From assembly GCA_963848965.1 (NCBI GenBank), contig CAWKFG010000001.1, positions 160,001-224,000 of the forward strand: a DNA stretch of 64,000 nucleotides, written 5' to 3'. The notes beneath the pieces were generated by a model. The model did no database searches and was not told the DNA's origin. It saw only the letters and a program-made list of their open reading frames with translations. Source of the DNA: an uncultured bacterium (GTDB taxonomy: Bacteria > Babelota > Babeliae > Babelales > Babelaceae). Both the position numbers and the translations under genes were made by a program. Below, one piece after another: positions 39,694 through 44,544 of the stretch; the stretch's first letter is position 1; every line of letters starts with the position of its first letter.

Positions 39694-40488
39694 CTAGTTT
39701 TTTGAAGGAACTTTAGCTGCTGCGTCAATTAAAAGTTGGGCAATAGAAGTTTTCCCTGCATGTTGAGCTACCTCAAGAGCTGTAAGTTTAGAAGGGCCTT
39801 TCATATGTATGTCTGCTCCTCGTTCTAATAATAACGGGACAGCTTCTGGAAAATTATATACGGCATCTATTAGAGGAGAGAACCCCATTACTTGTTGGTT
39901 AACGTCAGCTCCTTGGTCCAGTAAATAGATTACTATTGCTAATTGACGAGCGTTTATTGCTATAGAAAGGGGAGCTGAAAAAAAATCACCAGTAATATCT
40001 GATCCTTGGCTGATAAACTCTTTTACTGCTTGGAGATCTCCGTTGCTAATGGCTTTCAAAAGAAGGTCATTATCTGATTTTTTTCTCTCTTGCTCTTCTA
40101 ACCATTTCATAGCATAAAGCTTTTTTGCTATATCGTCTTTAAAGTGATTAGTAAGCTTGTTTGCAGTTGCTTCATAAGGAAATTTCTTATGAAGAGCATT
40201 AATAATAGCTTTGCTCAGAGTCAAGTTTGCACGAAAAAGAGGTAATTTTTGTATCTGTTGTAATGCTTCATCCAATGTCTTTGATGTATTTATACTATCT
40301 TGAGCTTTATTCCACACCCTATAAAGGTTAATCTCTGATAAAAGCTCCTTAGGTAAAGAACCAAAATACGTTTTTGTTTTAAGCTCTTGAGATGGTACAT
40401 GAAGATCAAGAAATTCAGGAACCATAGCTTGTAAGCTTAATTGATTGATAAGTATATAAAGAAGAATAAAAGAAAAATTTTTTAACAT
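39694..40488 (-). CDS. Secreted ankyrin-repeat protein with F-box-like segment
   Basis: Signal ...SLQA-MV; YFGSLPKELLSEINLY; 4 ankyrin repeats; paralog of 44555-45346. Confidence 0.85.
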   Translation of the reverse strand: MLKNFSFILLYILINQLSLQAMVPEFLDLHVPSQELKTKTYFGSLPKELLSEINLYRVWNKAQDSINTSKTLDEALQQIQKLPLFRANLTLSKAIINALHKKFPYEATANKLTNHFKDDIAKKLYAMKWLEEQERKKSDNDLLLKAISNGDLQAVKEFISQGSDITGDFFSAPLSIAINARQLAIVIYLLDQGADVNQQVMGFSPLIDAVYNFPEAVPLLLERGADIHMKGPSKLTALEVAQHAGKTSIAQLLIDAAAKVPSKN

Positions 40489-40582: not shown

Positions 40583-41740
40583 TCAAAAGTTGGTTGATTG
40601 AGAATGTTTAGATGTTTGTTGGTGTTGTGAGAGCTGATATCTATAAGTAAAGGCTTTATGGCATTCTTTACAAATATAGGGCTTTTCTTTAGTATGTAAC
40701 CTCGTGTGTGCCTCTAAGCTAGTTTTATTAAGAAAGCCTGTCTTACACCCAGGGTAATTGCAAGGGTAGGGCAGTAGGGACTGGGATTTATACACTTGTC
40801 CATCGAAAACAGTGGACATTTCTTTAAAAGTATATGTGGAACATGGATTTTTCTTTAAAGGATATGTATTAGGTGTATTTGTAGATAATTTTGAATCTTG
40901 GGGATGTAGTTTTTGCTGATGTCTTTGTAATTGTTTTCTATGGCTAAATGAGTCGCCGCATTCTTTACAAACATAAGACTTTGTATCTGTATGGCCGTTT
41001 TTATGATCTTTTAAGCTAGCTTTTTGCATAAAAGATTTGGTACAACTAGGATAATCGCATTTATAAGGCTTTTCACCTGTATGCATGCTCTTATTCAATG
41101 AACCGTTATTATCAATGACTTGTTCGTTATCTGTTTGACCAACGATACCGTTAGTAAGTTTTTCATTTAGGCTGTCCCTATCATCTCGTAGGTCGAACTC
41201 AAATAGTAAGTTACCAGCGTTAGATATGTCTTTTTCTTTTCTGTTACCGAGATCTATGCTAGGGACTTCATCTTCATGAAGAAAAGAATAATGCTTTTTA
41301 AGATCTTCAGATGTTGAAAAAGCAAATGAACATAATTTACAGGTATAAGCGTATGTTTCTTTGGCAGAAAAAAGAGAGTAAATGATAGGAGGAGATAAAG
41401 GTGACACTGCTTCTTTGTTTGAGGTAATGTTAGTACTATCTTGTATATCCCATATTTGTTTATGAGATGAATAAAGAGGTTCATGCGTAACAGGACAATC
41501 ATTTGTATTGTTTAGTTCAAAGCTAAGATCGGGAGTATTTAAGGGTTGGTCAAGATTATCAATACTATTGAGTAAAAAAGAAATACTATTTTTATCTTTA
41601 AAAGAAGTATCTAGTTTATGACGTTTGAGAATATTATATGTGCTAGTATCAGATAATGGTCTTTTAGAAGATCCTTCTTGCATGCACTTAAGAGTACAAG
41701 AGAGAAAAAGTGTTGAAAGAAAGATAATTGCTTTTTTCAT
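40583..41740 (-). CDS. Secreted eukaryote-like C2H2 zinc-finger protein
   Basis: Five C-x2/4-C-x12-H-x3-5-H fingers; HTGEKPY and HTKEKPY linkers; signal ...TLKC-MQ. Confidence 0.92.
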   Translation of the reverse strand: MKKAIIFLSTLFLSCTLKCMQEGSSKRPLSDTSTYNILKRHKLDTSFKDKNSISFLLNSIDNLDQPLNTPDLSFELNNTNDCPVTHEPLYSSHKQIWDIQDSTNITSNKEAVSPLSPPIIYSLFSAKETYAYTCKLCSFAFSTSEDLKKHYSFLHEDEVPSIDLGNRKEKDISNAGNLLFEFDLRDDRDSLNEKLTNGIVGQTDNEQVIDNNGSLNKSMHTGEKPYKCDYPSCTKSFMQKASLKDHKNGHTDTKSYVCKECGDSFSHRKQLQRHQQKLHPQDSKLSTNTPNTYPLKKNPCSTYTFKEMSTVFDGQVYKSQSLLPYPCNYPGCKTGFLNKTSLEAHTRLHTKEKPYICKECHKAFTYRYQLSQHQQTSKHSQSTNF

Positions 41741-42084
41741 AAATCCCCGTAAGCGCGGAAACTGCGTCTTTTAAGACGTAGAGGAGCGCTTGTGATACTA
41801 AGTCGGCAGCAAGAGTAAGTATGAACTTACTCTAGGCTGTACGGCAATCTCCCCTTACGGGGGTAAAGTTAGCCTCGCCAATGTTATAGAGCGGTATGTA
41901 TCAAGAGCACTAGCCTATACCCTCAACTTGTTTAACTCTTGAATTACAGGGCTTGGAACTGGCTTCGCATTCCAAGGTGTGATCTTTAACGCTCCTCTAT
42001 AACGTAGTCCTCTGCGTTCGCTCAGACTTAGGCTGGTCAACGTGAGCTTTTGCAAGCTACGTCCTTTAGGACGTAGTAGTTGAC
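41741..42084 (-). mobile_element. Non-autonomous IS200/IS605-type (IscB/OMEGA) element with no ORF
   Basis: Starts GTCAACTAC; twin subterminal hairpins CTACGTCCTAAAGGACGTAG and CTACGTCTTAAAAGACGCAG; ends TTTCCGCGCTTACGGGGATTT before ATGA; GC-richer than its flanks. Confidence 0.85.
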
Positions 42085-42104
42085 AAAACTCACTTTACTA
42101 CGAG
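41845..42104 (-). ncRNA. omegaRNA (HEARO-like) scaffold with 5' guide
   Basis: GTCAAC...GTTGACCAGCCTAAG...ACTACGTTATAGAG...ACACCTTGGAATGC..GCCAGTTCCAAG...TTAAACA...CTCTATAACATTGGCGAGGC...TTACC. Guide inferred as about 20 nt 5' of 42084; ends approximate. Confidence 0.82.
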
Positions 42105-42324
42105 AGCTATTATTTTTTTATACTATTTATAATATATTAAATTGATCTATTTTTCAAGCTTTGAGACAGGTCGCCTCCTTATACTAGAAGGGATATAAAA
42201 GATTTTTTATGAAGCATAGCAGGGAATAATTACTTATTGCAAAATTATTTAATTCTTTTAGACTTAGGAGCATAAAAGTATTTATTATATAATTTTTTAT
42301 CTTTCCTTATATAGTGAGTTCTTA

Positions 42325-44544
42325 ATGAAAAATACTACCCTTTTTCTCCTTACGTTTTTTCTTTATAGCTTTTACATAAGCTGTATGGAAAAAGAAGCTG
42401 GAGACCAGATAGCTCTGCAGCAGAGCAGTCAGCTATCGCTTATTCAGGCTATTGCATCTGGTGAGGTAAAGAAAGCGTTAGAGTTACTAAGAAGTGATGT
42501 TGACATTAATCAAGTGGATAAGTATGGGAACACTCCTTTAATGGCAGCTGCTTGCAAGGGATATATGCAGCTTATAAAGCTTCTCATAAAAAAGGGAGCC
42601 CATCTTGAAGCTGCTGATAATCGAGGAGCAACAGCTTTAATGTATGCTGTAAGTTATGAAAATAAAGAAGCGGTAAAGGAACTTCTTGCTCACGGTGCGA
42701 ATGTAAGAGCTCAAAGCAAGGAGGGAAATACAGTGCTCTTTGCTGCTCTTTCGCATGAAGACGGTGAAATTGTAAAAGAACTTCTTAAAATAGAACCAAA
42801 AATTGTTGATGAATGTTATGGCTCTCATACACCCCTTACTTTTGCTCTTACAAGAGAAGCTTTATCGATGGCGGAGCTATTAGTAGCGTATGATGCTAAT
42901 GTTAATCTTGCAGAAACTAGTAAAGGATTCAGCCCCTTACGAGTGGCTGTAGATAAAGGATATAGAACATTTGTAGAACGTCTTATAAAAAAGGGGGCCC
43001 TAGTAAACCATCAATGTATTGAAGGAAGAACTGCACTTATAAGTGCAGCAAGTAAAGGATATTTACCTATAGTAAGACTATTGATTAATAATGGGGCCAT
43101 AATAGACCTACAGCCACGAGATGGATGGACTGCTTTAATGGATGCTGCTGAAAATGGACATGAGCATATTGTAGCCGAGCTTTTAAAAAGAGGAGCTAAT
43201 GTTGCTTTATGTAACAATAGAAATGGAGAAACAGCAGTTTTAAGTGCTGTAAAAAAAGGTTACTTAGGTATTGTAGAGCTGCTTATGGAGGCGGGTGCAG
43301 ATATTTATGGTAAGACTAACGATAATTGGACTGCATTGACTCTTGCTTGTTGTAATGGGCATAAGATGCTTGTTGAAAAGCTATTAAAGCTTAAGGTTGA
43401 TCCTTGTGTAGCTGATGATGACTATGGCATGACTGCTTTACATATGGCAATCTGCAATGGTCATACTGATGTTGCTCTTATGCTTATTAAAGCACGAGCA
43501 GGGATTGGCTGTAAAAATAAGAGAGGCGAAACACCTTTAATGTCTGCAGCTGTGGGGGGTAATGAAAAAGTAGTAGAGGCGCTTCTTAGTGAAAAAGTAG
43601 ATCTTAATGAAAAAGATGATGAGGGACTTTCTGCTTTAGAGAAGGCAGCGCGAGTGAAAGAGATGGGAACAGTTGATCAGCTTATTAATGCAGGAGCAGC
43701 TTATAATGAATCATCTTTAGAAAAATTTCTTTTAGAAAAGCTACCAAATCAAAGTCCGGAAAAATCTTCTCTTCCATTTACTTTTAAAAGAGTAGGTGAT
43801 GAGGTTATAATGAGTTCGCCGTTTATAGGAAATTCAACTATATTTACTGGCAAATTGGGAATTACAACTGCAGCGCATCTTATTAAAGAGGGATGTATAG
43901 CAGGTGAAGGTTTTAGCAACTTAGAGGATCCAAAGAGAAAAATAGATTTTCTTATAACGTTACTACTGCAAAATAAGCCTGAGTTGGTGCAAAAGCTACT
44001 TAAGCAAGAAGCACTAGATGTTAATACAAAATCAACAGATGGTAAAACTCTTTTAATGGTAGCAGCTCTTCAGAATCAATGTGAGCTCATGCACATGCTT
44101 ATTGAACAAAAGGCTTGCATTACTACTCAAGATGATAATGGTGATACGGCTCTTACTCTTGCTATTCTTAAAGGCTATTATAGACCAGTTATATTACTTA
44201 TTTCTTCTGGCGCAGATATTACAGAAACGGTACCTTTTTTTTGCATGCTTGTAAAGAAAGGATATCTTGATGTTCTTAATGCACTTATAGAATATGGGGC
44301 ACCTGATACAAGAGGCTACAGCGAGCTTATACATCTTCTTAAAGAAAGAGAACTTTCTTTGCGGTTCGATAGTTGTTTATATTGTAAGGCACTAGCTCCA
44401 GCGTCTACTCGTGCAAAGCAGTGTGGTCGATGCCTATTTGTACGATACTGCTCAGCTACATGTCAAAAAGAAGATTGGCCTACGCATAAACATATATGTT
44501 CTCAACTTAAAGAACTAGTTCAAAAGTTAAGAGCTACTACTTAA
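42325..44544 (+). CDS. Secreted ankyrin-repeat protein with C-terminal MYND zinc finger
   Basis: Many ankyrin repeats; CLYC...CGRC...YCSATCQKEDWPTHKHIC; signal ...YISC-ME. Confidence 0.92.
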   Translation: MKNTTLFLLTFFLYSFYISCMEKEAGDQIALQQSSQLSLIQAIASGEVKKALELLRSDVDINQVDKYGNTPLMAAACKGYMQLIKLLIKKGAHLEAADNRGATALMYAVSYENKEAVKELLAHGANVRAQSKEGNTVLFAALSHEDGEIVKELLKIEPKIVDECYGSHTPLTFALTREALSMAELLVAYDANVNLAETSKGFSPLRVAVDKGYRTFVERLIKKGALVNHQCIEGRTALISAASKGYLPIVRLLINNGAIIDLQPRDGWTALMDAAENGHEHIVAELLKRGANVALCNNRNGETAVLSAVKKGYLGIVELLMEAGADIYGKTNDNWTALTLACCNGHKMLVEKLLKLKVDPCVADDDYGMTALHMAICNGHTDVALMLIKARAGIGCKNKRGETPLMSAAVGGNEKVVEALLSEKVDLNEKDDEGLSALEKAARVKEMGTVDQLINAGAAYNESSLEKFLLEKLPNQSPEKSSLPFTFKRVGDEVIMSSPFIGNSTIFTGKLGITTAAHLIKEGCIAGEGFSNLEDPKRKIDFLITLLLQNKPELVQKLLKQEALDVNTKSTDGKTLLMVAALQNQCELMHMLIEQKACITTQDDNGDTALTLAILKGYYRPVILLISSGADITETVPFFCMLVKKGYLDVLNALIEYGAPDTRGYSELIHLLKERELSLRFDSCLYCKALAPASTRAKQCGRCLFVRYCSATCQKEDWPTHKHICSQLKELVQKLRATT

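Follow-up and report, generated by a model that had tools for sequence, protein, structure and literature searches.

With a probability of about 60%, the segment at positions 41741-42084 (minus strand) of the window is an IscB-less, non-autonomous ISC/IS200-IS605 element that keeps an intact omegaRNA, usable in trans though probably idle at present, and that entered between the native leader of a zinc-finger gene and the ATGA opening this gene. The window is the whole analysed stretch of 64,000 nucleotides, corresponding to C1:160001-224000 of a Dependentiae assembly (1.73 Mb in 5 contigs, 88.7% complete, 37% G+C). The host bacterium is a parasite of protists. The element measures 344 bp, exactly the length originally predicted, and extends from GTCAAC (42084) to GGGGATTT (41741). 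It possesses subterminal imperfect hairpins at both ends and no terminal inverted repeats, a layout shared by the full elements. The features of the locus, all on the minus strand, are as follows.

42129..42157, minus: sigma-70-like promoter candidate, TTGAAA-17 nt-TATTAT, 10/12 matches
42085..42104, minus: 5' flank and would-be guide CTCGTAGTAAAGTGAGTTTT, 20 nt, the old leader of the host gene, outside the element
41863..42084, minus: omegaRNA scaffold as in Rfam HEARO, a full-model match that includes the 5' subterminal hairpin
42076-42057, minus: 5' subterminal hairpin CTACGTCCTAAAGGACGTAG
41846..41862, minus: omegaRNA 3' extension past the Rfam model, a CCCC-GUAA-GGGG hairpin plus AGAUU
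41782..41845, minus: spacer at the place of iscB in a full element, with a perfect 9-bp hairpin at 41833-41812
41781-41762, minus: 3' subterminal imperfect hairpin CTACGTCTTAAAAGACGCAG, presumed TnpA binding site
41741..41761, minus: 3' terminal motif TTTCCGCGCTTAC followed by GGGGATTT, in which GGGGA, 3 nt upstream of the ATG, resembles a Shine-Dalgarno sequence
41737..41740, minus: ATGA, the target site, presumed TAM and start codon of the host gene
40583..41740, minus: host gene, coding for a 385-aa C2H2 zinc-finger protein (Pfam zf-C2H2, 64.6 bits) whose N-terminus resembles a signal peptide

A cmscan search of the whole window against Rfam revealed a match to RF02033 HEARO, the IscB omegaRNA, at 41863-42084 (minus), with a score of 139.2 bits against a cut-off of 83 and an E-value of 6.7e-29 over the full length of the model (positions 1-211 of 211). 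It is the sole Rfam match above the gathering score in the 64 kb, and a local E-value covariance search returned the same match at the same coordinates and strand. Its score is the highest among the 16 family members scored. The original prediction had read a HEARO-like scaffold on the minus strand of the 344 bp, and the Infernal search with the Rfam model thus confirms it well above the cut-off. GUCAAC/GUUGAC forms the closing stem, GUUAUAGAG/CUCUAUAAC the long-range stem, CUUGGAA/UUCCAAG a stem-loop and GCCUA/UUGGC the pseudoknot, which has one U-U mismatch in the window copy. These pairings, already named in the prediction, are helices both in the model alignment and in an RNAalifold consensus of eight omegaRNAs, four from the window genome in addition to four IscB-linked ones from three sister genera. 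The consensus comprises 68 pairs, 24 of which show compensatory change across the eight members. The window copy keeps 67 of the 68 as canonical pairs, which bears out the earlier impression that its pairings were intact, and the IscB-linked copies keep 66-68. The 3' extension at 41846..41862 is present in seven of the eight aligned copies and shows covariation from CG to AU. A match to HgcC at 41667-41804 (plus) scored 19 bits against a cut-off of 50 and was rejected as noise.

An iscB frame directly downstream is usual for HEARO, but it is no requirement of the RNA family. In the window, the frame that follows the omegaRNA encodes the zinc-finger protein instead of an IscB with its RRXRR and HNH domains. 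The two near-identical hairpins said to bound the element were located at 42076-42057 and 41781-41762, and in full elements, both of the same genome and of relatives, the counterpart of the latter is found behind the iscB stop codon or overlapping it. BLAST homology of the window element to relatives stops at element position 239. The spacer at 41782-41845 is common to another copy of the genome, termed B2 (90% identity over 130 nt). Its local alignment to the iscB ends of the A-type was no better than that of shuffled sequences (P 0.29 and 0.43). A derivation of the spacer from iscB is thus not supported, and the proposal that the copy arose by internal deletion draws on two analogous IscB-less copies, c4b and L076, which are described below.

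Searches of the whole genome located HEARO at four places: the window copy (c1), C4:425484-425707 (c4a), C4:860498-860718 (c4b) and C5:5184-5403. The C5 copy breaks into G+C-rich sequence, and the last 130 nt of contig C4 continue it with a 2-nt overlap; because of this continuity, we regard the two pieces as parts of a single copy (B2) that a chimeric contig join has separated. The starts of three contigs (C4:1-19000, C5:1-5190 and C1:1-2000) have 58-74% G+C compared to 37% for the genome, the C5 junction lying inside the HEARO copy, and are probably chimeric joins or contaminant sequence. An IscB gene adjoins only c4a, and the other three copies, c1, c4b and B2, lack it. The sole RRXRR (IscB) match in the genome is at C4:424915-425442, next to the c4a HEARO, in agreement with the original claim that neither the element nor the window holds an iscB or tnpA frame. 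The open frame of this C4 IscB measures 446 aa, or 430 aa when counted from its ATG. The protein has a full RRXRR domain (226.7 bits) and an HNH domain (49.4 bits), and it resembles the solved IscB structures with E-values from 4.5e-43 (TbaIscB) to ~1e-26 (OgeuIscB). Judged from its reading frame, it is apparently intact.

The copy c4b is a clean internal deletion of the c4a element, in which reference positions 34-321 are joined to 1440-1621 with 97.6% identity. The window copy and B2 represent a second subtype: they are 93% identical to each other in the omegaRNA and 90% in the tail, and both show about 80% identity to c4a, the omegaRNAs of the window copy and c4a being 79.7% identical. The element had been proposed to be non-autonomous and mobilised in trans; this fits the sister copy B2, an IscB-less copy built alike at a different locus, and the sharing of this layout at two loci suggests past mobility of the IscB-less form.

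The search for a transposase gave a different outcome. No match to PF01797 (Y1_Tnp) at E ≤ 1 was found in the 88.7%-complete genome, and the best tblastn match with the TnpA of a relative had an E-value of 7. Thus, of the items that the prediction had proposed to look for in the genome, further copies (three) and an IscB (on C4) were found, and tnpA was not. Owing to the incompleteness of the assembly, the absence of TnpA is unproven; as none was found, present-day mobility is doubtful. Eight TnpB-type matches exist at seven loci of the genome (IS605B/IS1341-like; C4:638627, 514783, 332362, 613811, 82606, 753771 and C1:415345), four of which are open frames of 326-414 aa. BLAST with the full element matched none of the seven, which is a weak test of shared ends.

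Homologs of the element were found in sister genera as well as in its own genome, so that a covariance match, related copies and iscB-linked homologs, the lack of which was to count against the prediction, are all present. HEARO exceeded the cut-off in 4 of the 41 genomes of the relatives sample, and IscB was likewise detected in 4 of 41. A BLAST search with the element was positive in 8 of 261 Dependentiae genomes (two candidates scored per genome), all belonging to one family (f1); within this family, 7 of 40 genomes were positive without counting the window genome. We examined 16 omegaRNAs above the cut-off, of which 11 are IscB-linked, four stand alone (three in the window genome and one in G047) and one is cut by a contig end. 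Five IscB elements of sister genera (two in G002, one in G010 and two in G019) share the plan of the elements in the window genome: a 5' GTCAAC, the iscB stop codon in or beside the 3' hairpin, GT(T/A)TCC..., a Shine-Dalgarno-like motif, and an ATGA that opens a frame of at least 91 aa. The stand-alone omegaRNA of the second genus (L076, 1501-1726, plus, on G047:C1) scores 129.4 bits and is followed by a 51-aa stub of the IscB N-terminus and then directly by a 319-aa frame starting with ATGA. Y1 matches were present in three of the four relatives tested, among them intact frames of 155-206 aa in G019.

The shared IscB-less layout of the window copy and B2 means that iscB was lost before the two separated, and the differences between them record what has happened to the omegaRNA since then. 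Among 15 differing positions, seven lie in stems, and all seven keep a standard pair (P ~0.012 under random transitions, a value from a small sample and a structure derived partly from these very sequences). These pair-keeping changes hint, modestly, at a constraint that has persisted. No iscB of the window subtype was found in the genome itself, and no parent IscB element with more than 77% DNA identity was found in the 261 Dependentiae genomes, again with two candidates scored per genome. Across the family, the identity of the omegaRNAs (77.5, 74 and 70%) tracks that of the adjoining IscBs (74, 68 and 60%), so roughly three-quarters identity to the C4 IscB is probable for the lost nuclease of the window subtype. 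At this distance, use of the window omegaRNA by the C4 IscB is plausible; nevertheless, as the RNA differs by about 20% from the one beside the only IscB, such cross-use is an assumption.

The main rival explanation is that the element is an inert relic, whose omegaRNA is unused and intact only through its youth, and of which only the 3' end with its ribosome-binding site matters to the cell. It arises because, without TnpA, there may be nothing left to cut. We consider it possible, at rather less than even odds. Consistent with it, neither TnpA nor an IscB of the cognate subtype was found, every stage of decay down to solitary 3' ends is present in the genome, additional weak HEARO matches (31-47 bits) in three sister genomes are clearly decayed, and the rate of difference in the omegaRNA (15/214) is barely below that in the tail (13/130). 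It accounts less well for the preserved stems, since copies that have diverged by 7% free of constraint should have some broken pairs, and for the highest HEARO score of the family being that of the window copy. One further weak HEARO match, in G019, lies upstream of an IscB-like frame of 418 aa.

The stages of decay can be traced through copies at unrelated loci, which comprise the four omegaRNA-bearing ones and about 16 shorter remnants that keep the 3' end before a start codon. Two mini-elements of 51 and 66 nt (C1:448384 and C4:355081) retain GTCAA(C/T) in addition to the 3' end. Stubs of the iscB 3' end precede solitary 3' ends at C4:620250-620331 (90%) and C4:325803-325870 (77%), and an isolated iscB fragment lies at C4:778199-778417 (72%). 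The window copy would then represent one stage of a series leading from the full element through the omegaRNA-only form and the 51-66-nt mini-element to the solitary 3' end. In about 18 genes (for example at C1:448352, C4:544145 and C4:855478), the start codon comes straight after a residual 3' end of the IscB transposon, which provides their only correctly spaced Shine-Dalgarno motif. Many of these genes begin with a signal-peptide-like sequence.

In every copy, the hairpin at the 3' end leads into GTTTCCGCGCTTAC and then a (T)GGAG-like motif rich in purines, which a short A/T spacer separates from ATGA. An nhmmer profile built on such ends matched 20 genomic places at E ≤ 0.51, among 30 matches at E ≤ 10. 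ATGA follows directly at all 20, a count that is partly circular as the profile included the ATGAA columns. At 18 of the 20 places the ATG opens a frame of at least 61 aa, the frames at the other two being of 19 and 7 aa. When copies were recognised by the core motif, the Shine-Dalgarno motif and ATG alone, all 13 had an A after the ATG, compared to a background of 54% (781 of 1442 ATG frames preceded by a Shine-Dalgarno motif; 0.54^13 ~3e-4). Moreover, ATGA abuts all five IscB elements of the relatives. We rejected the idea that the 3' motif is a host leader common to the phylum: a degenerate pattern of it had eight matches in the window genome and zero to two in each of 40 relatives, the reversed-pattern control giving two in the window genome and zero to six in the relatives.

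In the window, the element ends directly against the ATGA of the 385-aa zinc-finger gene. On either side lie genes for ankyrin proteins, one of 739 aa with a MYND finger at its C-terminus (42325-44544, plus) and one of 264 aa (39694-40488, minus); together with the host gene, whose C2H2 zinc fingers are of the eukaryotic type, they look like an effector-like neighbourhood. Because the upstream ankyrin/MYND gene is divergent, any promoter must lie within 42085-42324. The sigma-70-like candidate at 42129..42157 falls in this interval; it probably served the downstream gene before the insertion and would now transcribe the omegaRNA as well, although such sites are not enriched in the region (3 found against 2.8 expected in shuffles). 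No terminator-like site was found in 41500-42450.

This arrangement suggests how the preferred reading, that of an IscB-less element with a usable omegaRNA, would operate. The promoter of the host gene would transcribe the leader, the omegaRNA and the gene as one RNA, in which the last 16-20 nt of the old leader would become the guide and the Shine-Dalgarno motif of the element would keep the gene translated. We infer that the C4 IscB would use this guide by loading the window omegaRNA in trans and cutting the element-free site (guide plus ATGA), and such cutting would favour retention of the element. As no Y1 transposase was found that would excise elements and so present the nuclease with sites to cut, any trans activity is probably dormant at present.

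Upstream of GTCAAC, the four copies in the genome and five copies in relatives have unrelated flanks. In the window copy, the 16-nt guide end has 51 genomic matches with up to three mismatches, none of which is followed by ATGA, TTGA, GTGA or ATAA. The 16-nt guide end of the c4a omegaRNA has a second exact match at C1:98772-98787 (plus), inside an ffh/SRP54-like gene; the chance expectation for it is ~1e-3, and it is followed by TTTA rather than ATGA.

The structured RNA might instead have been co-opted as a cis-acting 5' untranslated region of the host gene, controlling its stability or translation, possibly via IscB binding, and not be maintained for the transposon. The position between a promoter-like site and a start codon with no terminator, the frames of at least 61 aa behind 18 of 20 element 3' ends, and the persistence of the structure after the loss of IscB all accord with this proposal. 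However, the omegaRNA part has been lost from most genes that bear the 3' end, so the structure is dispensable there, and no functional tie connects the downstream genes. We therefore regard it as improbable.

At the 5' side, the homology among copies begins exactly at GTCAAC. At the 3' side, the 12 nt TGGAATTTTACA immediately before ATGA are the same in four A-type ends, each of which precedes a different, unrelated gene, and the sequences diverge past ATGA; the two copies of G002 are likewise identical at their 3' ends up to ATGAA. The A-type identity assigns the stretch with the Shine-Dalgarno motif to the element and puts the junction at |ATGA. A purine run resembling a Shine-Dalgarno motif stands 5-14 nt before GTCAAC in 9 of 11 5' flanks, read directly from the flanks with no background set, as would be expected if the native ribosome-binding site had stayed upstream. 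We found no ortholog of the 385-aa host protein, and hence no empty site, among 29 metagenome loci, all of which hold distant zinc-finger relatives (24-58% local identity); the relatives sample contains no second genome of the same genus.

IS200/IS605 elements create no target duplication, and none was found in c1, c4a or c4b. In B2, the 10 nt GGAGATAGAG just before GTCAAC equal the last 10 nt of the copy before ATGA (C5:5404-5419 and C4:872738-872751), a match of 13/14 when TTA[C] is counted. This repeat may be what is left of a previous element that had inserted in tandem at a regenerated ATGA site.

The bases from TTAC to ATGA vary among old copies, and the B2 repeat can be read as a target duplication, so that the element could be taken to end at ...GCGCTTAC, with GGGGATTT as the native ribosome-binding site and a purine-rich NGGR rather than ATGA as target and TAM; this is very improbable in view of the shared A-type and G002 ends, the separate purine run upstream of GTCAAC, the lack of a duplication in three copies, and the N|ATGA target documented for ISC elements in the text of PMC4810608.

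The preferred reading of an IscB-less element at ATGA has close counterparts in print. Stand-alone omegaRNAs that function with IscB have been reported (Altae-Tran et al. 2021, as cited in PMC9581776). As that account describes them, they resemble the window copy in having no adjacent iscB, an IscB elsewhere in the genome, an intact scaffold and a 5' guide taken from the flank. They differ in that here the only IscB is of a sister subtype (omegaRNA 79.7% identical) and activity in trans is an inferred property. ISC transposons, including ISC1-1_MA and ISC2-1_MS, have a 5'-GTCA terminus and an N|ATGA target (Kapitonov, Makarova & Koonin 2016, PMC4810608). According to the main text of that paper, they share with the window element the 5'-GTCA, subterminal imperfect hairpins, the absence of inverted repeats, insertion 5' of ATGA and, for the most part, the lack of tnpA. 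The published ones encode IscB, whereas the window copy does not, and in the window genome the ATGA is a start codon at 18 of 20 places and the element end carries a Shine-Dalgarno motif.

A third comparison is offered by the PATE-like IS200/IS605 elements, whose omegaRNAs are acted on in trans and which have no protein genes of their own (Meers et al. 2023 preprint, 10.1101/2023.03.14.532601); the preprint also places the IscB omegaRNA at TnpA's right end. In that description, they are likewise protein-less, keep both ends and specify a guide RNA that needs the nuclease of another element. However, they are mainly of the TnpB-type, from Geobacillus and with an active TnpA, compared to an IscB-type element and no detected TnpA in the window genome. 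Literature searches and the texts of PMC4810608 and the Meers preprint yielded no statement of habitual use of a start-codon ATGA or of an element end that donates a Shine-Dalgarno motif. As stand-alone omegaRNAs and the N|ATGA target are already in print, the window element is a clean example and not a discovery.

Its value is that of a well-delimited natural case, in Dependentiae, of an omegaRNA that outlived its nuclease gene. The pair-preserving changes in two IscB-less copies make a lasting function of stand-alone omegaRNAs testable with one nuclease and two RNAs, and the C4 IscB together with an omegaRNA diverged by 20% constitutes a natural test of cross-compatibility for genome-editing work. 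Because the lineage sits at start codons with its own ribosome-binding site, its insertions are tolerated, and about 18 genes have retained the 3' ends as their leaders. More tentatively, and with a rather low probability, the lineage may have adapted to start codons: donation of the Shine-Dalgarno motif would make insertion nearly harmless, the IscB-less copies would be selected as a set of multiple guides for a single IscB in trans, and the solitary ends would be working ribosome-binding sites of ~1% of the genes. If this adaptation is real, the host promoter would pay for the omegaRNA, and the copies would form a small, dispersed multi-guide repertoire in a TnpA-less parasite genome.
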